This document shows positions 12,568 through 63,804 of a stretch of DNA of 64,000 bases, one piece after another (position 1 is the stretch's first letter; each line of letters opens with the position of its first letter). The notes below the pieces were generated by a model that saw only the letters and a program-made list of their open reading frames with translations, was not told the origin of the DNA and ran no database searches. A program made the translations under genes and the position numbers. The stretch lies in the NCBI RefSeq assembly GCF_054482525.1, contig NZ_CM137006.1; one strand, given 5' to 3'.

Positions 12568-12586
12568 GATTCAGAAAAATTGGGTA

Positions 12587-39686: not shown

Positions 39687-39722
39687 GATCGATAGCAACG
39701 ATCGATACCTGTTTTATCGATC
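39687..39722 (-). promoter_or_regulatory. agn43 phase-variation switch: three GATC Dam sites (39687, 39700, 39719) within the presumptive OxyR operator
   Basis: aaacGATCgatagcaacGATCgatacctgttttatcGATCg located upstream of flu; triple-GATC architecture is the established Dam/OxyR switch of agn43. Confidence 0.7.
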
Positions 39723-39840
39723 GTTTTATTCTATTAACGACAAGGCGGTCACGCAAGAGAAACAGGAGGAGTATGAGGGGTTTGTGTCATGTTTTCAGTT
39801 GGTTAACGTAATGTTATCAGGCATTTCCCTGGCAGACTGT

Positions 39841-45374: not shown

Positions 45375-47813
45375 ATGGCTATCAAAAAAACCGAACTCTA
45401 TTCTTCCCTGTGGGCAAGCTGCGACGAACTGCGTGGCGGGATGGACGCCAGCCAGTACAAAGACTATGTACTGACCCTGCTGTTTATGAAGTACGTTTCC
45501 GATAAGTATAAAGGCGATCCTTACGGGATGATCGTGATACCCAAAGGAGCCAGCTTTGACGATATGGTTGCGCTGAAAAATGACAAAGAGATCGGCGACA
45601 AAATCAACAAAATCATCCACAAGCTGGCGGAAGAGAACGGCCTGAAGGGCGTCATCGACGAAGCCGACTTTAACGACGAAGATAAGCTCGGCAAAGGCAA
45701 GGAAATGATTGACCGCCTGAGCAAGCTTGTCGGTATCTTTGAAGGGTTAAATCTCTCCAGCAACCGGGCCGAAGGCGACGATCTGCTGGGCGATGCCTAT
45801 GAATATCTGATGCGTCACTTCGCAACCGAATCCGGTAAGAGTAAAGGGCAGTTTTACACTCCAGCGGAGGTGTCACGTATTCTGGCGAAGGTGATTGGTA
45901 TTACTCCCGATACTCCGCAAGATGCAACGGTTTATGACCCAACCTGTGGCTCTGGTTCGCTGCTGTTGAAAGTGAATGATGAAGCCCGGCGCGGACTGTC
46001 GATTTTCGGCCAGGAGATGGATAACGCTACCAGTGCGCTGGCGCGGATGAACATGATTCTGCATAACAATGCCACCGCGAAAATCTGGCAGGGCAATACG
46101 CTGAGCGATCCGCAGTGGAAAGAGGCGAACGGCAAACTGAAAGCCTTCGATTTTGCCGTGGCGAACCCGCCTTTTTCCAATAAAAACTGGACCAACGGGC
46201 TGACGCCGAAAAAAGATCCGTTTGAACGCTTCGGCTGGGGTATTCCGCCGGAAAAAAACGGCGATTATGCTTTTTTGTTGCATATCATTAAAAGCCTGAA
46301 AAGTACCGGCAAAGGCGCGGTGATCCTGCCCCACGGCGTACTGTTTCGCGGTAACGCCGAAGCGAATATCCGTGAAAATCTAATCAAGCAGGGCTATATC
46401 AAAGGCGTTATTGGTTTGCCAGCCAACCTGTTTTACGGCACCGGCATCCCGGCGTGCATCATTGTGATTGATAAAGAGCACGCCCACAGCCGCAAAGGCA
46501 TTTTTATGATCGACGCCAGCCGGGGCTTTATCAAAGATGGCAACAAGAACCGCCTGCGTAGCCGAGATATTCACCGCATTGTGGACGTGTTCAACCATCA
46601 GCGAACGGTACCTGGCTACAGCCGGATGGTGCCCTCCAGCGAGATCGCCGGAAATGATTACAACCTGAATATTCCTCGCTATATCGAGAGCGGCGAGCCG
46701 GAAGATTTACACGATCTGACCGCGCACTTACAGGGCGGTATTCCGGCACGCGATGTGGATGCTTTGCAAGATTACTGGCGGGTATTCCCTGCCCTGCGCA
46801 ACGTGCTGTTTGCTGACGACCGTCCCGGTTACTGTCGGGCGCAGGTGAACGCGCAACAGGTGAAACCGACCATTCTGGCGCATCAGGAGTTTAAGGATTT
46901 TGCCACCCGCAGCCTGCTACCGTTTAAAGCGTGGGTGAAAGAGGCAAGTCTGGAAGAGATTCGCAAAGGTGATAAACCCAAAGCGCTAATCCACGATATC
47001 AGCGAAATGCTATTGGCGCAGTACGCCAACAGTGAGTTGCTGAACAAATACAGCGTGTACCAGATCCTGATGGATTACTGGACTGATGTCATGCAAGACG
47101 ATGTGTATGCGATTATGCAGGATGGCTGGCAAGCCGCCGCGCAAATCCGCGAGCTTCAGCCGGTGAAAGGCAAAGATGGCAAAAACATCTGGAAAGAAAC
47201 GCACGATTTCGAGTTTACCAAACGGCGCTACAAGGCCGATGTGCTGCCCCGTTCGCTGGTGGAAATTCGCTGTTTCCCGGAACTGCTGGATGCGCTGAAC
47301 CGCGCGCAGGAGCGCAGTGAAGAAGCCAGTCGTCAGCTAGTGGAATTCATCGAGGAGCAGGCAGGTGAAGAGGATCTGCTGGCCGAGGCGAAGAACGATA
47401 AAGATAAGGTGACGCAAAAGCTGGTGAATGCCCGTCTAGCACAGTTAAAGAAAACCACTGCCGGCCCAGATGAGCTGGCAGTGCTGAACCGCTGCCTGGC
47501 GCTAATTAAGGCCGAAGCCAGTGCGAAAAAAGCGCTGAAAGCCGCACAAGAAGCGCTGGATCGGGCGGTGTTTAAACATTATCCCACGCTGGATGAAGCA
47601 GCGATTAAAACGCTGGTAGTGCAGGATAAGTGGCTGGCAACGTTGCAGGCAGGGATCAAGGCGGAGATTGAGCGTATTACCCAGCAACTGGCGTCGCGCG
47701 TAAAGGAGCTGGAAGAGCGTTATGCTGAACCGTTGCTAGCGCTTGAAGCCTCCGTTGAGGCGTTGAGCGAGAAAGTGGCCGAGCATTTGCGGGCGATGGG
47801 GCTGGAGTGGTGA
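45375..47813 (+). CDS. hsdM: Type I restriction-modification methyltransferase subunit HsdM, unusually long (812 aa) with a C-terminal coiled-coil-like extension
   Basis: AdoMet motif DPTCGSGSLL and catalytic NPPF (VANPPFSNKNW) in the first ~470 aa; last ~300 aa are Ala/Glu/Lys-rich helical. Confidence 0.88.
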   Translation: MAIKKTELYSSLWASCDELRGGMDASQYKDYVLTLLFMKYVSDKYKGDPYGMIVIPKGASFDDMVALKNDKEIGDKINKIIHKLAEENGLKGVIDEADFNDEDKLGKGKEMIDRLSKLVGIFEGLNLSSNRAEGDDLLGDAYEYLMRHFATESGKSKGQFYTPAEVSRILAKVIGITPDTPQDATVYDPTCGSGSLLLKVNDEARRGLSIFGQEMDNATSALARMNMILHNNATAKIWQGNTLSDPQWKEANGKLKAFDFAVANPPFSNKNWTNGLTPKKDPFERFGWGIPPEKNGDYAFLLHIIKSLKSTGKGAVILPHGVLFRGNAEANIRENLIKQGYIKGVIGLPANLFYGTGIPACIIVIDKEHAHSRKGIFMIDASRGFIKDGNKNRLRSRDIHRIVDVFNHQRTVPGYSRMVPSSEIAGNDYNLNIPRYIESGEPEDLHDLTAHLQGGIPARDVDALQDYWRVFPALRNVLFADDRPGYCRAQVNAQQVKPTILAHQEFKDFATRSLLPFKAWVKEASLEEIRKGDKPKALIHDISEMLLAQYANSELLNKYSVYQILMDYWTDVMQDDVYAIMQDGWQAAAQIRELQPVKGKDGKNIWKETHDFEFTKRRYKADVLPRSLVEIRCFPELLDALNRAQERSEEASRQLVEFIEEQAGEEDLLAEAKNDKDKVTQKLVNARLAQLKKTTAGPDELAVLNRCLALIKAEASAKKALKAAQEALDRAVFKHYPTLDEAAIKTLVVQDKWLATLQAGIKAEIERITQQLASRVKELEERYAEPLLALEASVEALSEKVAEHLRAMGLEW

Positions 47814-49147
47814 TGGTGGATTTAATGGTGAATGAGCAACGGTCGAGTACGGCGGGGAAAGATGTGCCTGCGGGGTATAAACTGACTGAGGTGGGCGTGA
47901 TTCCTGAGGATTGGGATTGCGTACCATTTGGTAATCTGTTTAAAACAAACACAAAGAAAAAAAAAGTCAGCGATTATGAGCTAGTTTCATTTATTGGGAT
48001 GCAAGATGTTAGTGAAGATGCACAATTAAAAAATAATACTCAACTTCCTTTTAAAGAAGTTAAAAGTGGTTTTACTTACTTTGAAAAAGGGGATGTTTTA
48101 TTAGCTAAAATAACCCCTTGTTTTGAAAATGGAAAAGGATGTCATACCGCTGATTTACCTACTAATGTAGGTTTTGGGAGTACGGAATTTCATGTATTAA
48201 GGGAAAATGAAGACTCCGATTCTCGCTTCATCTATTTTTGGACAACTGATAAAAAATTCAGAGCATCACTGGAATCTGAAATGGTGGGAAGTGCGGGACA
48301 CCGTCGTGTGCCGCTAGTTGCTATAGAAAAATATTTGATTCCATGTCCCCCAAATTTGCAAGAGCAAAGTGCTATTGCTGATTCATTATCTGATATTAAT
48401 AATTTTATTCTAGCTCTAGAAAAGCTTATCGTTAAAAAACAAGCCATTAAAACCGCTACTATGCAGCGACTACTGACTGGTAAAACCCGTTTGCCACAGT
48501 TTGCGTTGCGCAAAGATGGCTCTGCTAAGGGATATAAAAAGAGCGAGTTGGGGGAGATTCCTGAAGATTGGAATTGTATTAATCTTGGTGAGCTAGGTAA
48601 TTGCATTATTGGGTTAACTTACAAACCTGAAGATACATCTGATTATGGTACATTGGTATTACGCTCATCCAACATTCAAAATAATCACTTAGCTTATGAT
48701 GATAACGTCTTCGTCAGCATAGAACCACCTGAGCGCACAATTGTGAAAGAAGGTGATATCTTGGTATGTGTAAGAAATGGCAGTCGCCAACTTATTGGCA
48801 AATGCGCATTAATTGACAAAAATGCGCAGGGCTCAGCATTCGGTGCATTTATGTCAGTATTCCGAACTGATATATATGGATTTACATTTCACCAATTCCA
48901 GTCTGATATTATTCAAAAGCAAATCGCTGAAGTTATGGGTGCCACTATCAATCAGATAACTAACAAAGATATGTTGGGCTTTAAAATCCCATTACCTGAA
49001 AATACAGAAGAACAAGCCGCCATCGCCGCCATCCTCTCCGATATGGACAAGGAAATCCAGATCCTGCAACAGCGTCTGGACAAAACCCGCCAGCTTAAGC
49101 AAGGGATGATGCAGGAACTGTTAACCGGGAAAATCCGCTTAATATAG
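47813..49147 (+). CDS. hsdS: Type I restriction-modification specificity subunit HsdS (two AT-rich target-recognition domains)
   Basis: Conserved central and C-terminal repeats (…LLTGKTRLPQF… and …QELLTGKIRLI) flanking two variable AT-rich domains; ATG overlaps the hsdM stop (ATGA). Confidence 0.85.
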   Translation: MVDLMVNEQRSSTAGKDVPAGYKLTEVGVIPEDWDCVPFGNLFKTNTKKKKVSDYELVSFIGMQDVSEDAQLKNNTQLPFKEVKSGFTYFEKGDVLLAKITPCFENGKGCHTADLPTNVGFGSTEFHVLRENEDSDSRFIYFWTTDKKFRASLESEMVGSAGHRRVPLVAIEKYLIPCPPNLQEQSAIADSLSDINNFILALEKLIVKKQAIKTATMQRLLTGKTRLPQFALRKDGSAKGYKKSELGEIPEDWNCINLGELGNCIIGLTYKPEDTSDYGTLVLRSSNIQNNHLAYDDNVFVSIEPPERTIVKEGDILVCVRNGSRQLIGKCALIDKNAQGSAFGAFMSVFRTDIYGFTFHQFQSDIIQKQIAEVMGATINQITNKDMLGFKIPLPENTEEQAAIAAILSDMDKEIQILQQRLDKTRQLKQGMMQELLTGKIRLI

Positions 49148-49159
49148 AAGGGAAAGCAC

Positions 49160-49816
49160 ATGGCTTATGATTACAGCGCCAGCCTCAACCCGCAAAAAGC
49201 TCTGATCTGGCGTATCGTCCATCGGGACAATATCCCGTGGATTCTGGATAACGGGCTGCACTGCGGCAACAGTCTGGTGCAGGCGGAAAACTGGATCAAT
49301 ATCGGCAACCCGGAGCTGATCGGCAAGCGTGCCGGGCATCCGGTACCTGTCGGAACGGGCGGGACACTGCATGACTATGTGCCGTTTTATTTTACCCCCT
49401 TCTCGCCAATGCTGATGAACATCCACAGCGGGCGCGGCGGCATTAAGCAACGCCCCAATGAGGAGATCGTTATTCTGGTCAGCAACTTGCGAAACGTGGC
49501 AGCACACGACGTACCCTTCGTGTTTACCGACAGCCATGCTTACTATAACTGGACCAACTACTACACCAGTCTGGATAGTCTGGACCAGATCGACTGGCCC
49601 ATTTTGCAGGCACGGGACTTTCGCCGCGATCCAGACGATCCGGCTAAATTTGAACGCTATCAGGCAGAGGCGCTAATCTGGCAACACTGCCCGATCTCTC
49701 TGCTGGATGGGATAATTTGTTACAGCGAAGAGGTCAGGTTACAATTAGAACAATGGCTGTTTCAGCGTAATCTAACAATGTCCGTTCACACACGGGCTGG
49801 ATGGTACTTCTCATGA
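49160..49816 (+). CDS. darT: DarT-like DNA ADP-ribosyltransferase toxin (DUF4433, 218 aa)
   Basis: [38 protein letters not shown]... matches E. coli DarT as I recall it; followed by a macrodomain gene with overlapping stop/start. Confidence 0.8.
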
Positions 49817-50880
49817 TCACATATACACAAGGCAATTTACTGGACGCACCGGTGGAAGCTCTGGTGAATACGGTTAATACCGTCGGTGTCATGGGGAAAG
49901 GCATCGCGTTGATGTTTAAAGAGCGCTTCCCCGAAAATATGAAAGTCTATGCCCTCGCCTGCAAACAAAAGCAGGTGATCACCGGCAAAATGTTCATTAC
50001 CGAAACCGGGGAACTGATGGGACCGCGCTGGATTGTTAATTTTCCGACCAAACAGCACTGGCGCGCTGATTCCCGCATGGAGTGGATTGAAGATGGCTTG
50101 CAGGACTTACGCCGCTTTTTGATTGAAGAGAACGTGCAGTCCATCGCCATTCCACCACTGGGCGCAGGCAACGGTGGTTTGAACTGGCCGGACGTTCGGG
50201 CGCAGATTGAATCTGCCCTTGGCGACCTTCAGGACGTTGATATCCTGATTTACCAACCGACTGAAAAATACCAGAACGTTGCCAAAAGCACTGGCGTAAA
50301 AAAGCTCACTCCCGCCAGAGCCGCCATCGCTGAACTGGTGCGTCGCTACTGGGTATTGGGGATGGAGTGCAGCCTACTGGAAATCCAGAAACTGGCCTGG
50401 CTGTTACAACGCGCCATTGAGCAGCATCAACAGGACGATATCCTCAAACTGCGGTTTGAAGCTCACTATTATGGCCCCTATGCGCCCAATCTGAACCATC
50501 TGCTTAATGCGCTGGACGGCACCTATCTTAAAGCCGAGAAACGCATCCCGGACAGCCAACCGCTGGATGTGATCTGGTTTAACGATCAGAAAAAAGAACA
50601 CGTTAATGCGTATCTGAACAACGAAGCCAGAGAGTGGCTACCTGCGCTGGAGCAGGTCAGCCAGTTAATTGACGGCTTTGAATCGCCGTTTGGTCTGGAG
50701 TTGCTGGCAACCGTAGACTGGTTGCTGAGCCGTGGCGAATGTCAACCAACGCTGGATTCCGTTAAGGAAGGGCTGCACCAGTGGCCTGCGGGCGAACGCT
50801 GGGCCAGCCGTAAGTTGAGGCTGTTTGATAATAATAATCTGCAATTTGCCATTAACCGCGTAATGGAGTTCCATTGCTGA
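49813..50880 (+). CDS. darG: DarG-like macrodomain antitoxin (about 355 aa; alternative start at 49801)
   Basis: N-terminal macrodomain [39 protein letters not shown]; ATG overlaps the darT stop (ATGA). Confidence 0.8.
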
Positions 50881-50898
50881 GGGTTTAAGGAGCGCCTT

Positions 50899-53800
50899 TT
50901 GAGTACCGTGGGCCAGCGCGAACGCGCCACACAGCAGCGTCTGATTCAGTTTTTTGTTGAAGATTTAGGTTACCGCCATCTGAGTCACCGCACCGGGTAC
51001 ACCGGGAACAGCAACATCGACACTAATATACTGAGCGCGTGGCTAAAACGGCGCGGCGTTAATGATACGTTGATCACCCGGGCGTTGCGGCAACTGGATT
51101 CCGCCGCCGCTCTGGGCGAAGGCAAAAAACTCTATTACGCCAATAAAGAGGTCTATCGCCTGCTGCGTTACGGCGTGAAAGACAAAGAAGGCGCAGGCGA
51201 GCAGAACCAAACCGTGTGGCTGATTGACTGGGCCAACCCACAAGCCAATGATTTCGCCATCGCCGATGAGGTGACGGTCAAAGGCGAGTACTGCAAGCGC
51301 CCGGATCTGGTGCTGTACGTTAACGGCATTGCGCTGGGCGTGATTGAACTTAAGCGTTCGTCAGTGCACGTCAGCGAAGGCATCCGGCAGAATCTCGATA
51401 ATCAAAAGAAAACCTTTATCCGCGATTTCTTCACCACTATGCAGTTAGTGATGGCGGGCAACGATACGCAGGGCCTGCGCTACGGCACCATCGAAACCCC
51501 GGAAAAATACTATCTGGAGTGGAAAGAAGATAATCCAGGCGACTATACACATAAACTCGACTTTCATTTAAGTCGTCTGTGTAGCAAATCCAGGCTGTTG
51601 GATATCGTCCATAATTACATTGCCTTTGATGTCGGGGTGAAAAAACTCTGCCGCCATAATCAGTTCTTCGGCGTCGAGGCGGCTAAACAACATATTGCCC
51701 GTCGTGAAGGCGGTATTATCTGGCACACACAGGGATCGGGTAAAAGCCTGACGATGGTCTGGCTGGCGAAGTGGATCCGTGAAAATGTGCCAAACTCCCG
51801 CGTGTTGATTGTGACTGACCGCACCGAACTGGATGAACAGATCGAAAGCGTGTTTATGGGCGTGAATGAAGATATTTATCGCACCTCCAGCGGCAACGAT
51901 CTTATCGCAACGCTCAATCATCCTAACCCGTGGCTCATTTGCTCGCTGGTGCATAAATTTGGTCGTCGCAGCGAAGCTGAAGACAATGCGGCTACCGACG
52001 CCTTTATCACCGAATTACAGCAGTCCCTGACGAAAACATTCCGCGCCAAAGGCGATCTGTTTGTTTTTGTGGACGAGTGCCACCGCACACAATCCGGCAA
52101 GCTGCATAACGCCATGACTGCCATTCTGCCGGACGCCCTGTTTATCGGTTTTACCGGCACACCGCTGATGAAGAAAGATAAGAAGAAGTCGGTTGAGGTG
52201 TTCGGCCCTTATATCCATACCTATAAATTTGATGAAGCGGTGGCCGACGGTGTGGTGCTGGATCTGCGCTACGAGGCACGCGATATTGACCAGTATCTGA
52301 CATCAGAGAAAAAGGTCGATGACTGGTTTGAAGCCAAGACTCGCGGTTTGTCGAATTTAGCCAGGACCCAGCTTAAGCAAAAGTGGGGATCAATGCAGAA
52401 GCTGCTCTCCAGCAAGTCGCGGCTGGAGCAGATCGTTAACGACATTTTGCTGGATATGGATACCCGTCCACGCCTGATGGACGGGCGCGGCAACGCCATG
52501 CTGGTATGCAGCAGTATCTATCAAGCCTGCAAGGTTTACGAGATGTTCAGCCAGACCGAGCTGGCAGGAAAAGTAGCGATTGTGACCAGCTATCGCCCCG
52601 ATGCCGCCAGCATCAAAGGCGAAGAAACGGGCGAAGGGTTAACGGAGAAACTCTCTAAACACGCCACCTATCGTAAAATGTTGGCTGACTATTTTGAACA
52701 AAGTGAAGAGAAGGCCGCCGCACGCATTACCGAGTTCGAGCGGGAAATGAAACAGCGTTTTATTGAAGAGCCGGGGCAAATGCGCCTGCTTATCGTGGTG
52801 GATAAGCTGCTGACTGGCTTTGACGCGCCGTCCGCCACCTATCTCTACATTGATAAAACCATGACCGACCATACGCTGTTTCAGGCGATTTGTCGGGTGA
52901 ACCGGCTGGACGGTGAGGATAAAGAGTATGGCTATATTATCGATTATAAAGATCTGTTCCGTTCGCTGGATAAAGCGATTACCGATTACACCACGGGCGC
53001 GTTTGATGATTACGATCGGGACGATGTGGCCGGGTTGCTGAAAGACAGGCTGGAGCAGGCGCAACTGGATCTCGACAGCGCGCTGGAGATGGTTCGCAGC
53101 TTATGTGAACCCGTCAAAACCCCGCGCAGCCTGCTGGACTATCAGCACTATTTTTGCGGTGAATCAGGAGAGAATCAGACTTCGTTAAACGAAAAAGAGG
53201 CGCTGCGCCTGACATTTTACCAGTGCGTCGCCCGTCTGCTACGCGCTTATGCCAGCATCGCCAATGAAATGCCGGAAGCAGGCTACACTGCCGAAGAGGT
53301 AGAGAGCATTCGCGCCGAAGTCGCTGAATTCGAAAAACTGCGCTATGAGATTAAGCTGACCAGCGGCGATCTTCTGGATATGAAGCGCTTTGAACCCGCT
53401 ATGCGTCATTTACTGGATATGTATGTTCGCGCCGATGGTAGCGAAGTGCTGATGGATTTTGAAGAGTTAAGTCTGATTGAACTGATTGTCGAGAAAGGCT
53501 TGGCGGCGACCGTCGCCCTGCCGGATGATATCCGTAATAATCAGGATGCGATGGCGGAAACCATCGAAAACAACGTGCGCAAAACCATCGTGGATGAAAA
53601 CCCGGTTAACCCAAAATACTATGGACGCATGTCGCAGCTGCTGGATGAACTGATTACCCTTCGCCGACAAAATGCGCTCAATTATCAGCAGTATCTGGAA
53701 CGTATCCGCGATTTGTGTAAACAGGTCATCCGCCCGGAGCAAACCGCCGGAGCGTGCTACCCTGCCACCATGGATACACAAGCAAAGCGCGCCTTCTATG

Positions 53801-53994
53801 ATAACTTCGGCCACGACGAGGTACTGGCGACCCGCATAGATACGACGATTCGCTATACCAAAAGGGCAGAGTGGATTGGCGATCGTTTTAAAGAACGGGA
53901 AATTGCCAACGCATTACGTGAAGAGACCGCCAGCTATAATATTGATATTGATGAGGTGATAGCGCTTGCCCGTCAGCAGAAGGAATATCACTGA
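50899..53994 (+). CDS. hsdR: Type I restriction enzyme endonuclease/helicase subunit HsdR (1031 aa, TTG start after AAGGAG)
   Basis: Helicase motif I HTQGSGKSLTMV, motif II LFVFVDECHRTQSG; size typical of HsdR. Confidence 0.88.
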   Translation: MSTVGQRERATQQRLIQFFVEDLGYRHLSHRTGYTGNSNIDTNILSAWLKRRGVNDTLITRALRQLDSAAALGEGKKLYYANKEVYRLLRYGVKDKEGAGEQNQTVWLIDWANPQANDFAIADEVTVKGEYCKRPDLVLYVNGIALGVIELKRSSVHVSEGIRQNLDNQKKTFIRDFFTTMQLVMAGNDTQGLRYGTIETPEKYYLEWKEDNPGDYTHKLDFHLSRLCSKSRLLDIVHNYIAFDVGVKKLCRHNQFFGVEAAKQHIARREGGIIWHTQGSGKSLTMVWLAKWIRENVPNSRVLIVTDRTELDEQIESVFMGVNEDIYRTSSGNDLIATLNHPNPWLICSLVHKFGRRSEAEDNAATDAFITELQQSLTKTFRAKGDLFVFVDECHRTQSGKLHNAMTAILPDALFIGFTGTPLMKKDKKKSVEVFGPYIHTYKFDEAVADGVVLDLRYEARDIDQYLTSEKKVDDWFEAKTRGLSNLARTQLKQKWGSMQKLLSSKSRLEQIVNDILLDMDTRPRLMDGRGNAMLVCSSIYQACKVYEMFSQTELAGKVAIVTSYRPDAASIKGEETGEGLTEKLSKHATYRKMLADYFEQSEEKAAARITEFEREMKQRFIEEPGQMRLLIVVDKLLTGFDAPSATYLYIDKTMTDHTLFQAICRVNRLDGEDKEYGYIIDYKDLFRSLDKAITDYTTGAFDDYDRDDVAGLLKDRLEQAQLDLDSALEMVRSLCEPVKTPRSLLDYQHYFCGESGENQTSLNEKEALRLTFYQCVARLLRAYASIANEMPEAGYTAEEVESIRAEVAEFEKLRYEIKLTSGDLLDMKRFEPAMRHLLDMYVRADGSEVLMDFEELSLIELIVEKGLAATVALPDDIRNNQDAMAETIENNVRKTIVDENPVNPKYYGRMSQLLDELITLRRQNALNYQQYLERIRDLCKQVIRPEQTAGACYPATMDTQAKRAFYDNFGHDEVLATRIDTTIRYTKRAEWIGDRFKEREIANALREETASYNIDIDEVIALARQQKEYH

Positions 53995-54710
53995 TGCCAA
54001 TCATGCAAATAGGCTCGTTACACTTGCTGGTCAACCGTAAGGCGATTAAGAATCTGCATATCAGCGTGCTGCCGCCTGATGGCAAAGTACGCGTTTCAGC
54101 GCCGGAACATATGACGGAGACGGCGATTCGTATGGCGGTTGCTTCACGCTTTCGCTGGATCAGAAAACAGCAGCAGGATTTCGCCAGACAGCCTCGTCAA
54201 TCAGAGAGGGAAATGGTCAGCGGAGAGTGCCACTATCTTTGGGGCCGAAGATATCGCCTACTTGTGATTGAGCGTCACGGGCGTCACGAAGTAAAAGTTG
54301 CAGGAAATAATAAGCTCCAGCTTTATGTTCAACCAGGAACCCGTGATGAAAATAAGGCATTGGCGTTAAGTGAATTTTATCGACATGAACTAAAACAGCA
54401 GGTGGCTAAGCTTCTACCTGAATGGCAGGACCGAATCGGTGTTCCCCTAACATTCTGGGGCATCAAAAAGATGAAAACCTTTTGGGGCACCTGTAACACT
54501 ACAACAAAACGAATCTGGCTCAATCTGGAGCTAATTAAGAAGCCGCCGGAGTGTCTGGAGTATATTCTGGTGCATGAACTGGTTCATCTTCTGGAACGTC
54601 ACCATAATGCTCGCTTCCGGTTGCATATGGATCGGTTTATTCCTGACTGGCGTGAGCGTCGGGATTTGTTAAATAATATGCCGTTAGCGTTTGAGGCATG
54701 GGAGTATTGA
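53994..54710 (+). CDS. Zinc metallopeptidase-like protein (YgjP/DUF45/M48-like, HExxH), start overlapping the hsdR stop
   Basis: HELVHLLERHH motif; ATG at 53994 overlaps the hsdR TGA. Confidence 0.7.
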   Translation: MPIMQIGSLHLLVNRKAIKNLHISVLPPDGKVRVSAPEHMTETAIRMAVASRFRWIRKQQQDFARQPRQSEREMVSGECHYLWGRRYRLLVIERHGRHEVKVAGNNKLQLYVQPGTRDENKALALSEFYRHELKQQVAKLLPEWQDRIGVPLTFWGIKKMKTFWGTCNTTTKRIWLNLELIKKPPECLEYILVHELVHLLERHHNARFRLHMDRFIPDWRERRDLLNNMPLAFEAWEY

Positions 54711-55901: not shown

Positions 55902-57200
55902 CTAAATAATCATTGGCGCAATCACAAAGCCTAATGCCACTCCAGCAATAATTCCCCCCAACCCAGGCAGCATAAATGGATGATTCAGCACATATTTGCC
56001 TACACGAGTTGTGCCGGTAGTATCAAATTCCATGGCAGCCAGTGATGTTGGATACGTTGGCAGTACAAATACTCCGGTGACGGCCACATAGGACGCCAGA
56101 ATTGCCCAGGTGGGCACGTCAAGCGCGACGGCAAGCGGGATAATTAACGGCGTGGTCGCACCTTGCGAGTAGAGCAGCGCGCAAGTGCCAAAAAGAACCA
56201 GCGCCAACAACATCGGATACGCCTGCAAAATATCACCAGCAATATCTTTAATCTCAGTTAAATGCGCATCAATAAAAGTGGTGCCTAACGTTACAATGCC
56301 GAGAATTACCGCCAGCGAACTCATCCCCGCACGGAATGTGGAGGTGAGAATAATGGCATCGGTCGCCGTCTTACACAGCACCACCATCAGGCAGGCGGCA
56401 GAGAGCATACAGATAATAATGATATCGCGTGTTTCCATCGGTTTACCGATATCAAAACCCGGACGCAGTTGGGGGAAGGCAGCAAGAATAACAATAGCGA
56501 CCGTCGCCAGCAGGAACAATCCGACGGAGAGCGTCGCACCTGGCTTGATGCTGCTATTATTCTCGTATTTTTGCACCAGTCCTTTTTGCAGGCGCTCAAG
56601 GTAGACCTCGTCATCCTGCAACTCACATCCCTGTCGGGAAGCAATAAAAGCGGCGACCATCGCGGCAGCAAAAGAGGTGGGAAGACATACCGACATCACT
56701 TGAATAAAACTGACACCGTTTACCTCCATAATAGTGAGCATAGCCGCCATTGCGGCGCTGATCGGCGAACCGGAAATCGCAACCTGCGAAGCGACAACCG
56801 AACCGGCAAGCGTGCGGGAAGGACGGATACCGGACTCTTTCGCCACTTCAGCAATCACCGGCAGCGTGGAAAAAACAATAAACCCAGTACCGGCCATAAT
56901 GGTCATAGACCAGGTGATAATCGGCGCGATTATGTTGATATATTTCGGGTTACGCCGCATAAAATTACCAGCGACGCATACCAGATAATCCATTCCGCCT
57001 GCGGCCTGTAAGGCTGAGGCCGCCACAACAACGGTCATAATAATCAGGATCACGTCGACTGGCGGCGACCCCATAGGCAGACCAAATCCCAGAGTCAGAA
57101 TGGCAAGCCCAAGCCCGCCACATAAACCAATACCGATTCCCCCCTGGCGAATACCAAAAAATATTGCACCAAGTACTACGATAATTTCCAGCCAAACCAT
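55902..57200 (-). CDS. DcuA/DcuB-family anaerobic C4-dicarboxylate transporter homologue (432 aa)
   Basis: Strong similarity to DcuA as I recall it (…NPKYINIIAPIITW…LPVIAEVAKE…LPTYPTSLAAMEFDTTGTTRVGKYVLNHPF…). Confidence 0.75.
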   Translation of the reverse strand: MVWLEIIVVLGAIFFGIRQGGIGIGLCGGLGLAILTLGFGLPMGSPPVDVILIIMTVVVAASALQAAGGMDYLVCVAGNFMRRNPKYINIIAPIITWSMTIMAGTGFIVFSTLPVIAEVAKESGIRPSRTLAGSVVASQVAISGSPISAAMAAMLTIMEVNGVSFIQVMSVCLPTSFAAAMVAAFIASRQGCELQDDEVYLERLQKGLVQKYENNSSIKPGATLSVGLFLLATVAIVILAAFPQLRPGFDIGKPMETRDIIIICMLSAACLMVVLCKTATDAIILTSTFRAGMSSLAVILGIVTLGTTFIDAHLTEIKDIAGDILQAYPMLLALVLFGTCALLYSQGATTPLIIPLAVALDVPTWAILASYVAVTGVFVLPTYPTSLAAMEFDTTGTTRVGKYVLNHPFMLPGLGGIIAGVALGFVIAPMII

Positions 57201-57265
57201 AATGTTCTCCGTTATAAATATAATTCAGTTAAAAGCGAATAACTTTCTGGCTGCGATTTAAATGA

Positions 57266-57985
57266 TTATTGGGTTAAAAGATAATGTTTACCGACACGAT
57301 TTTCGTACCATTTTATTCCGGCACGAACGAGTGACGCCGTTGAGTCAATATAGCGGGAAGGCTGCTCTTTAACGGCTTGCGCCAGAATAACCGGAATTTC
57401 TGTACAACCAAGAACAAGGATTTCTGCACCGCGAGAAAATAATATTTCAGCCTGCTCATTCATCAACTTTTGTGCGTGCGCTATATTGCCAGCTTTCAAG
57501 GAATAAATACTTTCCATCACTTTTTTCTGACCGTCGGCATCGGGGCTGACACAGGTAAATCCCAGCGACTCAATTCCTTTTTGGTATAAACCCATATATA
57601 GCGTGGCATTGGTGGCTAACAAGCCAATTCGGGTTTTACCACAGGCGCGAACTTCATTGATCGTAGTTTCTACGATACTTAATATATCAATATGACAAGC
57701 ATCTTTTAATTCTTTGAACCAGTAATGCGCGGTATTACAGGGAATAACAATACATTCTGCCCCGGCATCTTCCAGCTTATGCATATAATCACGCATAACG
57801 GGTAATGGTGAACGCCCATGATGCATTAATGCATCGGTACGGTCAGGAATATCCGGGATCGAAGAAATAATTAAAGGAATATGTTCCTGATCACATTGTG
57901 CAGCGGTAAAAGTTACAAATTTATTAAACAGGTCGACGGTAGCTGCCGGCCCCATTCCACCGAGTACACCAATTAAACCTTTCAC
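57266..57985 (-). CDS. Asp/Glu racemase-family protein (putative aspartate racemase, 239 aa)
   Basis: MKGLIGVLGGMGPAATVDLFNKF... and ...LVLGCTEIP... characteristic of Asp/Glu/hydantoin racemases. Confidence 0.7.
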   Translation of the reverse strand: MKGLIGVLGGMGPAATVDLFNKFVTFTAAQCDQEHIPLIISSIPDIPDRTDALMHHGRSPLPVMRDYMHKLEDAGAECIVIPCNTAHYWFKELKDACHIDILSIVETTINEVRACGKTRIGLLATNATLYMGLYQKGIESLGFTCVSPDADGQKKVMESIYSLKAGNIAHAQKLMNEQAEILFSRGAEILVLGCTEIPVILAQAVKEQPSRYIDSTASLVRAGIKWYENRVGKHYLLTQ

Positions 57986-58329
57986 AATACCTGCCTCTCA
58001 AAACGTTAATGACAATACGCGGTAAATAACTGCTGCTCTCTTTTTTAACAGTCGAAATGGGCGATGAGAAATGCAAGGTTGTACAAGGCGATGCAAGACA
58101 CGCATGATGCAGCTATGGAACATTCCGCTTATTCACCATAGTGATGATGTATTCTGGTTATCTGACGGAAAAATTTCGTTTTTTTGGCGAAATGTGATAT
58201 CAACGTCAATACCGGAAATGAAGGAGTTATGCACAAAACGAATGATAAAGGCCAGGTTGTGCTAATTGAGAACATTATTTTTATTGCCGGGATGTTTTAT
58301 TATGTCTTTGGATTGAAAATACAGGTGCC

Positions 58330-59274
58330 ATGGTAATGAAGAATATCGAGACAAAATGGTTATACGATTTCCTGACACTGGAAGCCTGTCGCCATTTTTC
58401 TCAGGCGGCAAAAGAGCGTAATCTTTCGCAACCCGCATTCAGCCGACGAATTAAGGCGCTGGAGGCAGCGATCGGCGTTGTTTTATTCGATCGCACGACC
58501 ACCCCTTTACAATTAACCGAAGAGGGCAAGCTCTTTCATTCCCAGACTCGCAGCTTATTACAGCAGCTTGAATGCAATTTGGGGGAGTTAAACGGCCAGA
58601 GTTTACTCGGCGTTCCCAACATTAAAATTGCAGCCGCGCACTCACTATCCCTGAGCGTATTACCCAAACTGGTGCATTCACTTACCGCCTATGGCGGAGA
58701 ATTTGTCTATCATGTTGAAGCAATTGATGTTGTCCAGGCCGTAAATACGTTACGCGAAGGCAAGAGTGACTTTATTATTTCGTTTCGCGATGAAGATCTT
58801 ATGCAATCGCCTTTTTGCTGCCTGAAACTGTTTGAATCTGAGTTGTACCCGGTATGTGCCGCCGACGCACAGGGGCACCCTGTATTCGATATCACTCAGC
58901 CCCAGGTTCCTTTGCTCAACTATACCGCCACATCTTATATGGGCAGGTTGGTCAATCGTCATCTGGCAGAGGTTGGAGGTATTACCGGGCGCACGATATT
59001 TATCTCTTCGATGAGCGAGTTATTAAAGAATATGGCGCTCAACGGATACGGCATTGCCTGGTTACCGATCTGGTCGATCGTCGATGAACTACAGACCAAA
59101 CGTCTGATATGCCTTGATGCTGCTAAATTGACAGTCCCCATTCAGGCTTATATTTACCGAATGAACACCCGACTGAATAGAACCGCCGAGAACCTCTGGC
59201 GTATTTTACAGGAACATATGCCAGACGATTTAATCCAGCAGATATCAATGGAAGAGCCAGCACGCCGCAATTGA
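58330..59274 (+). CDS. LysR-family transcriptional regulator (314 aa), divergent from the racemase-transporter pair
   Basis: N-terminal wHTH (…LEACRHFSQAAKERNLSQPAFSRRIKALEAAIGVVLFDR…) and LysR substrate-binding region. Confidence 0.8.
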   Translation: MVMKNIETKWLYDFLTLEACRHFSQAAKERNLSQPAFSRRIKALEAAIGVVLFDRTTTPLQLTEEGKLFHSQTRSLLQQLECNLGELNGQSLLGVPNIKIAAAHSLSLSVLPKLVHSLTAYGGEFVYHVEAIDVVQAVNTLREGKSDFIISFRDEDLMQSPFCCLKLFESELYPVCAADAQGHPVFDITQPQVPLLNYTATSYMGRLVNRHLAEVGGITGRTIFISSMSELLKNMALNGYGIAWLPIWSIVDELQTKRLICLDAAKLTVPIQAYIYRMNTRLNRTAENLWRILQEHMPDDLIQQISMEEPARRN

Positions 59275-59391
59275 CGACGTGCAATAAATATCCTCCGGCA
59301 TAGCCGGAGGTTTTTCAAATGCGCCTATAAGGCTCTCTTACCAGCCGCGCCCTAACAGGCGCACACGATCTGACATTTGCATCCAACTTCG

Positions 59392-59769
59392 TTACTTACG
59401 GTCCGTAAACGGGCTGCCCGGACAGGGAATCGATAACTGCTCTCCCATTTTATCCTCTTCAAGCTGGTGCTTTATGTAATCCTGTATCTTCGCCGTGTTC
59501 TTACCCACTGTATCGACGTAGTCCCCCCTGCACCAGAACTCCCTGTTCCTGTATTTGAATTTCAAATCACCAAACTGCTCGTAAAGCATCAGACTGCTTT
59601 TCCCTTTCAGATATCCCATAAACCCGGATACGCTCATTTTGGGCGGGATCTCCACAAGCATATGGATATGATCTGCACAGCATTCAGCTTCCAGAATCCG
59701 TACGCTTTTCCACTCACACAGCTTTCTCAAAATACTGCCTGTTGCTCTACGCTTCTCTCTGTAGAACAC
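59392..59769 (-). mobile_element. IS200/IS605-family TnpA remnant (N-terminally truncated)
   Basis: ...FYREKRRATGSILRKLCEWKSVRILEAECCADHIHMLVEIPPKMSVSGFMGYLKGKSSLMLYEQFGDLKFKYRNREFWCRGDYVDTVGKN... matches IS200 TnpA but lacks the N-terminal ~27 aa. Confidence 0.75.
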
Positions 59770-60620
59770 CTGTCTTCGGTATTTTGGCGCAAAAAACTAT
59801 GTGATATTTACAGTTCCATCGGGTGTGCGCTAAGCTCTTTTCGTTCCCCATTGGGACCCCCTTTTGATTTCTTGTTTGACACTTGCAGTTGCCAGACCGC
59901 AAGGTGTTTTAACAAATCAAAAGGGGTTTTAATAACTGGCTCAAAGCTGAAAGCTTTCCGGAACCCCCAGCCTAGCTGGGAGTTTTCTGTGCACAAAAAA
60001 ACCCTGTAAAAAACTTACAGGGGTATAAGGCTTAGCCTAACTTGCGTCTGTTGCATGGTGCCGGGTGCCTCCCGGTGAATTCAGTCGGTGTCACTGAACC
60101 CGCGTAGGCTTCGCTCATAACATAATAAATGCTATGTACACCAGTCGCCCCACCGCACAGGGGGATTCACCACACGGCGCACTTTTTAACAAATATCCCT
60201 CCGGCCAGACAATAATAAACATAATGAATTGTGATCTTCTTAACAGTTTTAAAGTGTTACAGATAACATGCCAAGTAATTGCTTGTTTTTTCATCAATAG
60301 GAAGACCACACCAACAACCCCAGCTATCAGCCAGAACCGACATTATCCGGCTGATAAAATCTACCATCACTCCAACACCAATCACCGCCTGTGCCAGATC
60401 GCGTTTCTCAAACTTTTTAATCTCTGTTGCCACTCTGCGGGTTTTCTTTTTGAATTTTGAAAATACCAAATATCGTGACGTTTCTTTGGGGGATGAGCTA
60501 TCAAGCGGGAACGATCTGCCTACAGAGAAAGTCAGCCAGACCACTCTGCAAATTATCCCCGAAAGGCTCTGTGGCTGATATGCGCCGGGCATGGCGCAAT
60601 GGGCCAGTGGCAGTGTGTGA

Positions 60621-60696
60621 TGGTGGCCCTTACTGGATTTGAACCAGCGACCAAGCGATTATGAGTCCTCTTACCACTGAGCTAAAGGGTTGGAGA
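60621..60696 (-). pseudogene. Degenerate tRNA-like sequence (CAU anticodon loop, tRNA-Ile2/Met-like 3' part with intact T-arm and CCA; disrupted acceptor stem)
   Basis: Minus strand reads ...AGCTCAGTGGTAAGAGGACTCATAATCGCTTGGTCGCTGGTTCAAATCCAGTAAGGGCCACCA; first two acceptor-stem pairs are mismatched and the anticodon stem looks shortened. Confidence 0.5.
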
Positions 60697-61462
60697 ACGC
60701 AATATCACCTGTCTTATATGATTACACCCAGAATTTCCCGGACTGTCTTGTCAAAACATTCAGTCTCCAATTCCCACCAATAGCAAGACGGTCACTATGA
60801 CAGCATCTCCGGAATGAGCTCAGGGCACGGGGGTTTACCGAGGTTACTTTTCCAACGAAGTTTCTCAAACGCAGGCGTGATAACATTCAAACTTAGGATC
60901 TCAGTTGCTATCTTTTCCCATGTCTTACGGATTAATGTCATCGGTTGCATACAAATCGCTACAAGCTGCATCAAGGCACATGCTTCATATGTACAGTACA
61001 CCAAGATGGATAGGTGTTTCACCTAATCCTAGCTCATTTCAGGCAGGCTCAACAGGCTGCAGCCCGCATGTTTAAGGGCGCAGGTTATCAGCAGGTTATA
61101 AGCTGACCGGATACATTCCGGCAAAGAAAAACCTTGCAGCGATGAAAGCCGTTTCGGTAATGCAATGACGATAAAGCTGTCCTGTATATATGTGCTTCGC
61201 CTCAAACGCTTGCCGTTTTGGTATTGTGCACATGCCGTCTGAACGATGTGGAGCCAGAAAAATGGATGCGTTATGTCATTGAGCATATCTAGGACTGGCC
61301 GGCAAACCGGGTACACGATCTGTTGCTCTAAATAGTTGAGCTGGCCTCTCAGTAAATATCAATACGGTTTTGGTGAGCCGCTTACCACTGAAGCATCACT
61401 TCGGCAGGTAGATTTCTGCAGGCAGAATGGCGCTTACCTTAGCGATAAGCGCGTAAATGTGG

Positions 61463-62476
61463 TTATTCAATACCTGTGGTGACTGTAAAAGTGCGCGTTT
61501 GCTGCGGTGCAACCTGAATCAGCGTGCCATTACGTTGCGCGGCAAGATACCCCTCAGGTCGACAGGTTGCTGGTAATGCAAAGGCGGCTACCTGTTGCTC
61601 GCCGTTATAAAGGATCCAGCGTGTCACATAATTTAGTTCAGCACTGGAGAAACGAGTAACAAACGTAGTGCCATCGGGAGCGATCATGCGAAACTCTGGC
61701 TGATCTGTGTAAGCGTCCAGTTTGTCTGCAAAGAAGACTATTTCTGGATCATAAAATTCCGGTTGATTCAGCGTCGACAGAGAGGCTTCTCCCTGCATAA
61801 TCCGTTGATTAAACGCCAGCCACTGGGCGGTGGGATTAACATGCGAAGGTACTGATTCACGCAACCTTAATATTTCGTCCGGTATATTCTGGCTGAACGT
61901 AGCATTTGGTATATATGCATAATTCATGTGGCACATATATTGTAGTGGCATATCTACAGAAGCCAGATTGGTTACGGCCATCTTAATATCGAACAATGTA
62001 GAGGATTTGTGAAGGACCACTGTTGGCTGAGCCAGATAATGATGCCCGAACCCCATTACATACTCGTAACGCCCGGTAAGGCGTAACATATCTCCCTCTA
62101 ATTCCATCCATGCTTCATCCATCGCGGCACAGGCCATTTCACCGTGTAGCAGATGAGTATCTTCCGCAGATGGGCAGCCATTAGCCAGCAAACCTGAATG
62201 AAAGGCAAAACAGCCATAGGTCTCTATCACCTCTGTCGCCGGTTTAGGCTGGCGAAACATATTGCACATGGTGAGACTGTGTCCATCAAATTGCGCATCC
62301 CAAATCATCTGCCCCATCCAGGGAAGAATAATTAAATGTCCACGACTGTTTGCAATTTTAAGCCCCTCGACACCACTGTCATAGCGAAAAGACGTGACAG
62401 TAAAATCACTATTTTCCAGCAAGATACGAGGTTTTTCGCCAAAAAGCGCCCGCCACAAATAAATACGCGTACTCAT
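61463..62476 (-). CDS. deoX: DeoX-like protein (337 aa; mutarotase-like protein of deoxyribose operons)
   Basis: Follows a FucP-like permease and a pfkB-type kinase in the order of the deoK-deoP-deoX operon of Salmonella and pathogenic E. coli; assignment from gene order and size. Confidence 0.45.
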   Translation of the reverse strand: MSTRIYLWRALFGEKPRILLENSDFTVTSFRYDSGVEGLKIANSRGHLIILPWMGQMIWDAQFDGHSLTMCNMFRQPKPATEVIETYGCFAFHSGLLANGCPSAEDTHLLHGEMACAAMDEAWMELEGDMLRLTGRYEYVMGFGHHYLAQPTVVLHKSSTLFDIKMAVTNLASVDMPLQYMCHMNYAYIPNATFSQNIPDEILRLRESVPSHVNPTAQWLAFNQRIMQGEASLSTLNQPEFYDPEIVFFADKLDAYTDQPEFRMIAPDGTTFVTRFSSAELNYVTRWILYNGEQQVAAFALPATCRPEGYLAAQRNGTLIQVAPQQTRTFTVTTGIE

Positions 62477-62487
62477 AACGATTCTCC

Positions 62488-63804
62488 TCAGGACTCTGTG
62501 ACTTCAGCCAGTGCATTACGTACTTTGCTTTCACGCCAGAAGTAGACACCGACATAGACAAAACAGAGCATAGAAACCAGGAATGAAAGCTGTAGTGAGT
62601 GGAACATATCTGCAATATACCCCTGAATTGCCGGAACCACCGCTGCGCCAACAATAGCCATAACAATGACTGCTCCTGCCATTTCTGTATGTTGGTTATC
62701 AACTGTATCCAGTGTTCCTGCATAGATCGTCGCCCAGCAAGGGCCAAACAAAACACTTACCAGGACGGCGACATAGACCGCGCTGAAACTTGGAGCCAGT
62801 GCAACATATGCCAGAAACAGCGCCCCTATAACGGAATAGAGAATTAGGACTTTTTCCGGATTAAAACGTGTCATAAGGATGTTGGCTATAAACTTGCCAA
62901 TAAAGAAGCAGGCAAAGCTGTAGACCATGAAGTTTGAAGCATCACGTTCGTTGATATCGCCCAACTCCAGTGCCAGACGGATGGTAAATGACCATACTGC
63001 GACCTGCATACCCACATAAAGGAATTGAGCCACAATACCACGACGAAAGCGCGAATTTTTAGCCAGATAGCGCAGCGTATCCATTGCTGACGGGCGTTTA
63101 TGGTGACTTGTCTGTGCCACTTTACAGGTTGGGAAGCGGGTTAAAAGGAACAACACCATGACCACAACAAGAATCATAATCATATACTTATACGGTTCAA
63201 GGGTGTTCTCTAACATCAGCACCTTAAAGTTGTGAATTTGCTCGGCGTTCATTCCGGACATCTGCTTCTCAAGGCTTTCCCCCTCGGAGAAAACCAGATA
63301 TTTGCCCAATAAAATACCAGACGCAGCACCAATCGGATAAAAGGTCTGGCTGATATTGAGCCGCAATGTGGCATAGGCTTTTGGACCGATCATTGAACTG
63401 TATGTGTTCGCTGCAGTTTCAAGGAAACTCAGGCCAATCGCAATCGCAAAAATAGCTGCAAGGAACATAGTGTAGGTTGCCATATGCGAGGCAGGGAAAA
63501 AAAGTGTACAACCACCAATATACAGCGTCAGGCCAATTAAAATTGCCACCTTATAACTGGTCTTTTTAATCACAAGGGATGCTGGTATTGCAATTAAAAA
63601 ATAACCTCCATAAAATGCGCTCTGCACCAATGCTGAAGCAAAGTTACTTAGCGAAAATACACTTTTGAATTGAGTGATTAATATGTCATTTAATGCAGCT
63701 GCGCATCCCCATAGCGGGAATAAACACGATAACAAAATAAACTGGAACAAGGGAGTCTTATTCAGATACCCATCAGGCATCTGAATGATGTTTTTATCGT
63801 TCAT
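62488..63804 (-). CDS. deoP: FucP-family MFS sugar permease, DeoP-like (438 aa)
   Basis: 12-TM MFS protein with FucP-like N-terminus; between kinase and deoX-like genes. Confidence 0.6.
   Translation of the reverse strand: MNDKNIIQMPDGYLNKTPLFQFILLSCLFPLWGCAAALNDILITQFKSVFSLSNFASALVQSAFYGGYFLIAIPASLVIKKTSYKVAILIGLTLYIGGCTLFFPASHMATYTMFLAAIFAIAIGLSFLETAANTYSSMIGPKAYATLRLNISQTFYPIGAASGILLGKYLVFSEGESLEKQMSGMNAEQIHNFKVLMLENTLEPYKYMIMILVVVMVLFLLTRFPTCKVAQTSHHKRPSAMDTLRYLAKNSRFRRGIVAQFLYVGMQVAVWSFTIRLALELGDINERDASNFMVYSFACFFIGKFIANILMTRFNPEKVLILYSVIGALFLAYVALAPSFSAVYVAVLVSVLFGPCWATIYAGTLDTVDNQHTEMAGAVIVMAIVGAAVVPAIQGYIADMFHSLQLSFLVSMLCFVYVGVYFWRESKVRNALAEVTES

Follow-up and report, generated by a model that had tools for sequence, protein, structure and literature searches.

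Probable remains of a lambdoid prophage region with a decayed tRNA-Ile(CAU) gene at a module junction in a serX-associated island of Escherichia coli

Lambdoid phages carry tRNA genes of their own, ileZ, argN and argO, between the Q antiterminator and the lysis genes, and in phages of the 933W type the older Stx-phage literature places this cluster downstream of Q. What survives of the target tRNA in an attachment-site relic is, by its nature, the 3′ part alone. The name ileZ as used here follows the GenBank annotation of the Stx phage Lahn2 (AM072972), in which q, ileZ, argN and argO are annotated; a search of a literature collection for ileZ, argN and argO returned nothing. Repeats derived from tRNA genes have been described at the ends of tRNA-integrated genomic islands, with a 14-bp repeat in the serX-integrated SRL PAI and a 23-bp pheV repeat in the LAC PAI (PMC7545054, PMC6455142), and deoK is located on pheV islands elsewhere (PMC7545054, PMC6455142). 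[quoted passage not shown]

The window analysed here is a 64-kb stretch of the E. coli chromosome. The sole tRNA that ARAGORN calls in it, a tRNA-Ser at 27453-27540, adjoins ghrA and is serX, and the island belongs to this gene and not to serW as the first-pass annotation had it. The region at 59283-61460 lies between two cargo modules, one with a racemase, a DcuA-like transporter and a LysR gene on the left and the deoK deoxyribose operon on the right, and is very probably a non-functional patchwork of mobile-element wreckage inside the serX-associated island. Within it, some 0.8 kb of the minus strand (59991-60790) is in all likelihood what is left of a lambdoid prophage resembling the Stx phages, namely of its late-regulatory "moron" region, and a decayed ileZ-type tRNA-Ile(CAU) of that lost prophage, caught between IS debris, would account with high confidence for the tRNA-like sequence found there. 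The IS200 tnpA, the tRNA-like sequence and the ORF debris that the first-pass annotation had recorded are all located where it placed them and represent real homologies, each of which needs correction.

The tRNA-like sequence is 71 nt long, occupies positions 60621-60691 on the minus strand and appears to be a dead copy of the tRNA-Ile(CAU) gene carried by lambda-like phages, that is, a pseudogene of an ileZ-like, phage-type tRNA-Ile2 with the anticodon CAU, on the evidence of its Rfam score, alignments and fold. It reaches 30.7 bits with the Rfam tRNA model (gathering score 29; E = 7.5e-4 in a 2.4-kb search and 0.02 window-wide) as compared to 72.5 bits for an intact phage copy. It derives from tRNA-Ile2, has an intact 3′ end and is 89% identical to K-12 ileY over 74 aligned columns in blastn (E 3e-22). 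G1G2 are changed to AA, with the loss of acceptor pairs 1-72 and 2-71, the anticodon stem has lost five nucleotides of its 5′ strand, and the D-loop and the T-stem carry point changes as well; the T-arm and CCA are intact. The earlier description of an intact T-arm and CCA, a broken acceptor stem and a shortened anticodon stem is thus accurate; the length given there was 76 nt. Since the 5′ acceptor strand, the D-arm and the anticodon loop have survived, the sequence is a whole gene copy and not the 3′ tRNA fragment it had been taken for. Neither a 7-bp acceptor stem nor a 5-bp anticodon stem is present, no functional tRNA is called here by ARAGORN, as expected of the degenerate sequence first proposed, and the minimum-energy fold (-17.4 kcal/mol, z = -0.79) contains no cloverleaf; the intact tRNA copies fold at -33.5 and -34.1 kcal/mol, with z about -4. 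The pseudogene is presumably without function. Its T-loop is of the phage type (TTCAAATCC) and its variable loop, CGCTTGG, is of the chromosomal ileX/ileY type, the three comparator phages having CGCCAGG at this place. Since there are 5 mismatches in the tRNA body to ileY and 6 to the phage ileZ, and the variable loop is chromosomal, the body is about equally distant from the two types. An exact-match scan of viral contigs found one contig with an intact tRNA of this very allele in flanks that do not match, and two in which this tRNA type is represented by its 3′ 45 nt alone.

The DNA around the pseudogene was compared with three independent lambdoid sequences, the prophage in strain C7, phage Evi and the Stx phage Lahn2. 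On its 5′ side, the minus-strand segment 60699-60790 aligns with the ileZ leader of lambdoid phages (blastn 73.9% to the C7 prophage, 69.9% to Lahn2); in the C7 prophage this stretch is where a DNA methyltransferase gene has its 3′ end, and tblastn gives a weak match to the C-terminus of the methyltransferase (E 0.018). About 29 nt are deleted directly 5′ of the tRNA. On the 3′ side, the trailer (60599-60620) is likewise phage-like and aligns with the ileZ flank. The flanks of K-12 ileX and ileY, with which the first-pass annotation had suggested a comparison, show no similarity to these surroundings beyond the tRNA itself. Next on the minus strand, at 60380-60598, are the upstream region and codons 1-29 (60466-60380) of tciA, a TerB-family gene (blastn 84% to the C7 prophage, 79% to Evi), for which tblastn gives 67.6% identity over 37 aa in an alignment that continues into a fragment of tciB; the matches to the tciA region are annotated as TerB family protein, and the names tciA and tciB are those used in phage JLK-2012. 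The tciB/DUF3927 fragment at 60326-60370 on the minus strand comprises codons 18-32 of 69, of which 14 of 15 (93%) are identical to the C7 prophage and Evi proteins by tblastn (blastn 82%), and the tciA codons are fused to it through a deletion of approximately 390 bp, an estimate from C7 prophage coordinates.

In the C7 prophage the gene order is Q-like, methyltransferase, tRNA-Ile, tRNA-Arg, TerB, DUF3927, STnc100/AgvB and then the lysis genes, and the one-strand order of leader, tRNA, tciA, tciB and STnc100 in the window is the order in the C7 prophage, Evi and Lahn2. The tRNA-Arg (argN/argO) is missing, with about 10 nt between the trailer and the tciA upstream region as opposed to about 200 bp in the C7 prophage, which fits a relic and is no argument against phage origin. 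Neither the Q gene nor the lysis genes remain beside it. The best phage matches reach 79-84% identity in tciA and 70-74% in the leader, and parts of STnc100 are matched at 75-97%. E. coli prophages, the phage collection and viral contigs yielded no source prophage that is both close and intact; among E. coli prophages the tciA part is matched at 84.6% identity at best, and the phage-collection matches range over 65-85%.

The last surviving piece of the lambdoid relic, and the only one still structurally whole, is a prophage-type STnc100 small RNA gene at 59991-60205 on the minus strand, which scores 136.4 bits with RF02076 (gathering score 47) over model positions 1-206 and is full-length and structurally intact. 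A member of the family at the equivalent position in the C7 prophage scores 140.3 bits, and the core is conserved in the alignment with Evi and Lahn2. The gene has its own terminator hairpin (60002-60022), and a candidate -10 element CATTAT upstream of it (~60221-60226) lines up with CATAAT in the phage copies; a simple promoter scan of the minus strand upstream found nothing. It is conceivable, if rather doubtful, that transcription of the orphan gene continues and that selection has preserved it in this island family while every protein-coding neighbour decayed, the compared strains being too close to show constraint; if true, STnc100 would be a phage regulator that has been domesticated and acts on mRNAs of the host or the island.

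The STnc100 terminator is immediately followed by an IS200C element at 59283-60001 on the minus strand (left end +/- ~5 nt), which joins the relic to the left module. Other IS200C copies match window positions 59283-60002, and the right-end boundary at 59283 recurs in matches to the joint between hypT and IS200. With a length of about 720 bp, both ends present and 97-99% identity to other E. coli IS200C copies, the element is complete, whereas the first-pass annotation had described a truncated IS200-family tnpA; the gene (59392-59851) is indeed broken, by a +1 frameshift from one extra A in the run at 59786-59791, and the ORF at 59392-59769 on the minus strand encodes the C-terminal 125 aa of IS200 TnpA. 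PGAP likewise labels tnpA "frameshifted", and strains FCI23 and N1024 have an intact 152-aa tnpA at the same locus. The left end and tnpA 5′UTR form the structured RNA STnc490 at 59861-59984 on the minus strand (RF01405, 143.1 bits, full length 1-124), and a right-end hairpin is located at 59292-59310. A size of ~0.7 kb, end hairpins, a structured 5′UTR and a single Y1-transposase gene readable across one frameshift indicate a member of the IS200/IS605 family.

On the other side of the relic, the ORF debris noticed earlier can now be assigned to the tciA and tciB fragments described above, a P2-like gpA fragment and an IS66-family end. The segment at 60774-61070 on the minus strand is an internal fragment of a P2-like gpA replication endonuclease, aa 173-275 of 804, with 78% blastn identity to gpA of Klebsiella phage 4LV2017 (tblastn E 1.4e-16), stop codons and frameshifts; a PGAP pseudogene at 60799-60985 lies inside it. 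An ISCro1-like right-end remnant of the IS66 family occupies 61228-61385 on the plus strand and is 88.6-91% identical to IS66-family transposase genes on plasmids, some of which are annotated as ISCro1. It codes for transposase aa 472-503 with an in-frame stop, followed by ~60 bp, and gives a tblastn match to the ISEc8 Tnp (59%, E 3.5e-11). The three-ORF IS66 organisation, with tnpA, tnpB, a DDE transposase and inverted repeats, is not present, and the piece is a remnant only. The stretches 61071-61227 and 61386-61429 have homologues only in copies of the same junction.

The right-hand module begins with a hairpin sequence (61430-61462, minus strand; delimited by the boundary of shared matches in other genomes) downstream of deoX, an aldose-1-epimerase family gene at 61463-62476. 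About 1,500 of the 1,692 matching E. coli genomes share the deoK operon only from ~61430-61459 onward and have different DNA beyond, the shared match beginning at window position 61459 in most of the 1,692; a sensitive blastn comparison with Nissle 1917, in which a PTS operon lies beyond the deoK edge, begins at 61430. On the left, the racemase/DcuA/LysR module stops 8 bp before IS200 in 351 genomes, at the hypT-IS200 joint. Both boundaries uphold the earlier idea that separately acquired modules meet here, and the comparison with deoK islands of other strains turned out in its favour. At least 80% of 60206-61460 is carried by 72 genomes, and in further genomes the joint is interrupted by later insertions of IS4, ISSen4, IS100, ISEc8 or ISEcp1-blaCMY-2. 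Over its entire length the junction is at least 98% identical among the strains compared, and it is old and shared.

The proposal that the tRNA-like piece is an attachment-site relic, namely the attR-type 3′ scar of a second, deoK-bearing island that came from an ileX/ileY-type tRNA, draws on its true tRNA-Ile2 derivation, its intact 3′ end and its position within a real junction between modules. The two viral contigs with only the 3′ 45 nt resemble an att core as well, and elements that target this tRNA therefore probably exist. The retained 5′ acceptor strand, D-arm and anticodon loop nevertheless do not agree with such a scar, and instead of an island end on one side and the target locus on the other, the DNA of both flanks and of the next 600 bp is that of a phage late region, in the phage order. 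No second copy of the tRNA-Ile 3′ end or of the serX 3′ end was detected in the 64-kb window with up to 3 mismatches, and no integrase is present in the window, nor does the annotation show one from serX to the deoK operon; past the end of the window the island was covered as annotation up to ~12 kb further. The deoK boundary (61430-61459), moreover, is at least 740 bp away, with the P2-like gpA and IS66 debris in between. The 5′ half, the phage flanks and the lack of a partner repeat and an integrase refute the relic attachment site, and a scar of this kind is extremely unlikely; the phage-borne tRNA is cargo and not an att site.

A translocated or duplicated chromosomal ileY or ileX that decayed within the island would explain why the identity in the tRNA body is marginally highest to K-12 ileY and why the variable loop is of the chromosomal type, and it may be rated as very unlikely given that the A in the T-loop is phage-type, an intact tRNA of the same allele resides on a viral contig, and both flanks match the phage ileZ; the dissimilarity of the K-12 flanks speaks against an ileY or ileX origin. 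That 60621-60691 is still a working RNA, be it an unusual tRNA in which the anticodon stem is short or an element of tRNA-like form that serves in regulation or processing, is scarcely credible. The Rfam score just above the gathering threshold, the intact T-arm and CCA and the presence of the sequence in several hundred genomes could be read in this sense, but with two broken acceptor pairs and no 5′ strand in the anticodon stem the sequence forms no cloverleaf and folds no better than shuffled sequences do, ARAGORN makes no call, strains differ by a C/T substitution at 60675 within the pseudogene, and all surrounding genes are wrecked. Recent common descent, as indicated by the similarity of the whole junction, accounts for the conservation of the sequence among strains. 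A functional tRNA is ruled out by ARAGORN, the Rfam score, the alignment and the fold taken together.

For the preferred reading, a decayed tRNA of a lost lambdoid prophage, the direct observations are the identity and order of the pieces, the tRNA lesions and the boundaries of the IS elements and modules, and the route by which the lambdoid and P2-like fragments entered the serX island can be proposed in outline. A prophage, or a piece of one, would once have resided in the island ancestor or recombined into it. Successive deletions may then have removed ~29 nt of the leader, 5 nt of the anticodon stem, the tRNA-Arg gene or genes and most of tciA and tciB, and the joins were presumably made by IS insertion, IS-mediated recombination and deletion; the +1 frameshift in the IS200C tnpA would have been gained later, in this lineage. 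Decayed phage-borne tRNA genes can evidently mimic att relics, and the 5′ half and the flanks of a tRNA-like island fragment should be checked before it is called an att scar. The importance of the locus is small beyond correct annotation, which in several hundred genomes should gain an unannotated pseudo-tRNA and an unannotated STnc100 copy, and in which the "hypothetical" and "DUF3927" pseudogenes can be named as a P2-like gpA and a tciA-tciB fusion, respectively. The junction can also be marked as a place where insertion sequences have landed repeatedly; one strain has an ISEcp1-blaCMY-2 unit there.

When set beside the described systems, the locus shares with the repeats of the SRL PAI and the LAC PAI a tRNA-derived sequence in an island near a module boundary, but those repeats are short 3′ pieces paired with an intact tRNA and an integrase, whereas the window has a whole copy in phage flanks with neither a partner nor an integrase. 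Its IS200C has the left-end hairpin and 5′UTR structure, the right-end hairpin and the single tnpA of the known element, and differs in the inactivation of tnpA by the +1 frameshift. The STnc100 gene agrees in core, structure and the upstream tciB with the prophage STnc100 (RF02076), which in lambdoid prophages follows stx or moron loci on their downstream side and is related to PasD; unlike the prophage copies, it is an orphan with no prophage around it, departs from the comparators in its 3′ part and terminator hairpin, and is abutted at the terminator by IS200. A close counterpart is the ileZ-argN-argO cluster of lambdoid and Stx-converting phages such as Lahn2 (AM072972), with which the window has in common the tRNA type (CAU, ileX-like), the leader, the trailer, the strand order and the position relative to tciA/tciB and STnc100, although the window copy has a dead tRNA with a chromosomal-type variable loop, a deleted tRNA-Arg and no Q, lysis genes or prophage backbone. 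The locus as a whole is ordinary genomic wreckage.

The three items described in the first-pass annotation, an IS200 sequence, a tRNA-like sequence and short ORF debris, are all present in the region. The tRNA-like sequence, located by the Rfam tRNA model and by alignments, occupies 60621-60691 on the minus strand and has the intact T-arm and CCA, broken acceptor stem and shortened anticodon stem initially noticed. Aligned with K-12 ileY and ileX, it proves to be a whole-gene copy of a tRNA-Ile2 (CAU) gene in which the 5′ half is retained, so the earlier description of a 3′ tRNA fragment does not hold. Its lesions comprise a G1G2 to AA replacement and the loss of 5 nt from the anticodon stem on its 5′ strand; the D-loop and the T-stem also carry single changes. 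ARAGORN calls no tRNA at 60621-60691, the Rfam score of 30.7 bits is barely over the gathering score of 29, and the predicted fold (-17.4 kcal/mol, z = -0.79) is no better than that of shuffled sequences, compared with -33.5 kcal/mol for an intact phage copy and -34.1 kcal/mol for ileY, both with z about -4.

The tRNA body alone cannot tell a chromosomal from a phage origin, because its variable-loop bases are of the chromosomal type and it has five mismatches to ileY and six to the phage-borne tRNA gene ileZ. In a multiple alignment the T-loop is of the phage type, and the leader and the 3′ trailer follow the phage sequences, while the flanks of K-12 ileX and ileY are unrelated. A megablast search with 60206-61460 matched the stretch 60380-60598, at 84.6% identity, to a gene annotated "TerB family" that STEC prophages carry. 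The lambdoid prophage of E. coli strain C7 carries, in order, a Q-like gene, a DNA methyltransferase, tRNA-Ile, tRNA-Arg, the TerB-family gene (tciA), a DUF3927 gene (tciB), an intergenic stretch with Rfam matches to STnc100 (140 bits) and AgvB, a large esterase-like gene, holin, lysozyme and Rz. Local BLAST aligned the window with this prophage piece by piece on a single, minus strand: the pre-tRNA leader and methyltransferase 3′ end at 60785-60699 (74% identity), the tRNA and trailer at 60689-60608 (87%), the tciA upstream region and first 29 codons at 60598-60380 (84%), codons 18-32 of tciB at 60370-60326 (14 of 15 amino acids), and a full-length STnc100 at 60205-59991 (136 bits with Rfam). 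The same order is found in phage Evi and in the Stx phage Lahn2, where the genes are annotated in GenBank as q, ileZ, argN and argO. Relative to these phages, the window has lost about 29 nt of the leader, the 5 nt of the anticodon stem, roughly 200 bp with the tRNA-Arg gene or genes, and about 390 bp that hold the remainder of tciA and the first part of tciB. The tRNA-like sequence thus sits in a relic, approximately 0.8 kb long, of a lambdoid late region, and its flanks, which we regard as decisive, together with this collinearity identify it as a decayed phage-borne gene of the ileZ type. The E. coli prophage, phage and viral-contig matches included no source prophage, or close relative of it, in intact form.

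The tRNA-like piece had been interpreted as a relic attachment site. An attachment scar retains nothing of the target tRNA but its 3′ end and comes with a partner copy and an integrase. At 60621-60691 the 5′ half is kept and the flanks are phage sequence; the 64-kb window holds no second copy of the 3′ end of either tRNA-Ile or serX, and no integrase is annotated in the island stretch containing the tRNA-like sequence, which together rule the attachment relic out. The region is instead an ordinary mosaic of decaying mobile DNA. When viral contigs were scanned for this tRNA allele, one intact tRNA came up, along with two contigs in which an ileX/ileY-type tRNA is represented by its 3′ 45 nt alone and no tRNA can be called (L014, 3940-3984; L016, 11738-11782); these pieces have the form of an attachment core and possibly are the cores of phages integrating into tRNA-Ile2 genes.

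The IS200 sequence is likewise confirmed, but the element is complete rather than truncated, extending from 59283 to about 60002, the span matched by IS200C copies across E. coli. The 125-aa ORF at 59392-59769 on the minus strand is the C-terminal part of the transposase, and the N-terminal 34 codons lie in a different frame. Strains FCI23 and N1024 have an intact 152-aa tnpA at this locus, and relative to it the window's run at 59786-59791 contains one extra A. STnc490, the IS200 left-end/5′UTR structure, is detected at 59861-59984 (143 bits). On the left side of the region, the right end of the element begins at 59283, next to a LysR gene ending at 59274, a joint present in 351 genomes; its left end abuts the terminator hairpin of STnc100. 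The latter is a prophage sRNA considered a marker of phage origin; Stx phages carry it downstream of stx (bioRxiv 10.64898/2026.05.13.724894; PMC12370729). Here it is full length (59991-60205), structurally intact and orphaned outside any prophage, and it might still be expressed; we consider it the sole mildly interesting residue of the region.

The further short ORF debris is also real and identifiable. A piece from the interior of a P2-like gpA replication endonuclease gene (60774-61070, minus strand; residues 173-275 of 804) carries stops and frameshifts and has 78% DNA identity to Klebsiella phage 4LV2017, and an IS66-family right end (61228-61385, plus strand; transposase residues 472-503 with an in-frame stop) is 88.6-91% identical to plasmid IS66-family copies, some annotated as ISCro1. 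For 61071-61227 and 61386-61429 no homologues were found outside this junction. The lambdoid and P2-like fragments would have reached the serX island by IS-mediated recombination and deletion, which are the obvious routes.

That the region separates island modules is upheld by genome comparisons, not by the tRNA. Among 1,692 E. coli genomes matching 60700-62500, about 1,500 share only the sequence that starts at query position 760 (window 61459). In a more sensitive comparison the similarity to Nissle 1917 starts at 61430, in a hairpin downstream of deoX, and in Nissle the shared stretch gives way to a PTS operon and a different transposase fragment. In other strains deoK lies on pheV islands (PMC7545054, PMC6455142). 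The junction is old and shared, and later insertions have split the same sequence in other strains: IS4 at 59968-59978, ISSen4 at 60217-60222, ISEc8 at 61101-61109, IS100 at two different sites and, in N1024, an ISEcp1-blaCMY-2 unit that gives a chromosomal AmpC gene. The junction (59968-61109; junction loci L005, L010, L011 and L013) is accordingly a repeated IS landing site. An IS insertion is normally expected to leave a short target duplication only. At L010, L011 and L013 an 89-bp stretch (window 60522-60610) seemingly occurs in two diverged copies, one on either side of IS100, which suggests more than a simple insertion.

The region is 100% identical to many E. coli chromosomes, such as AH62 (NZ_CP055259), whose annotation places the core genes mdtH to ghrA before a tRNA-Ser(GGA) at window 27453-27540. 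This tRNA separates the island from ghrA, ycdX and the csg genes, and because of these gene neighbours it is serX, not serW as previously assigned; all window DNA to its right is island DNA. Directly following serX is a CP4-type module (27690-40713) with DUF4942, DUF957, the CbtA/YeeU toxin-antitoxin, an antirestriction protein, DUF932, Ag43 and a YeeP-like GTPase, all genes reading towards the tRNA. Islands are usually laid out as tRNA, integrase, cargo and then the CP4-type module, which is usually distal. No integrase adjoins serX or occurs anywhere in the window, and we regard the module as inverted with respect to that layout. Two further Rfam matches exceed their gathering scores, IS102 RNA upstream of the Ag43 gene (39488-39724, minus strand) and STnc130 inside the mdoH region (12439-12573, plus strand).

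Further along, a type I restriction-modification system (45375-54710) embeds the darT-darG DNA ADP-ribosylation toxin-antitoxin pair between hsdS and hsdR (49160-50880), followed within the segment by an M48 metallopeptidase gene. After an IS600 fragment come a DcuA-like transporter, an aspartate/glutamate racemase and the LysR regulator (55902-59274); to the right of the debris lies the deoK operon, annotated with an aldose-1-epimerase-family gene, a permease, a kinase and DeoR. The PGAP names "hypT" for the LysR gene and, in one record, "cuyB" for the racemase look like transferred names for predicted functions. The racemase/DcuA pair has been reported as a D-aspartate catabolism module (AspR-DcuA) on the SRL island, which is integrated at serX, and the transporter, racemase and LysR gene of the window together match that module (PMC7545054).
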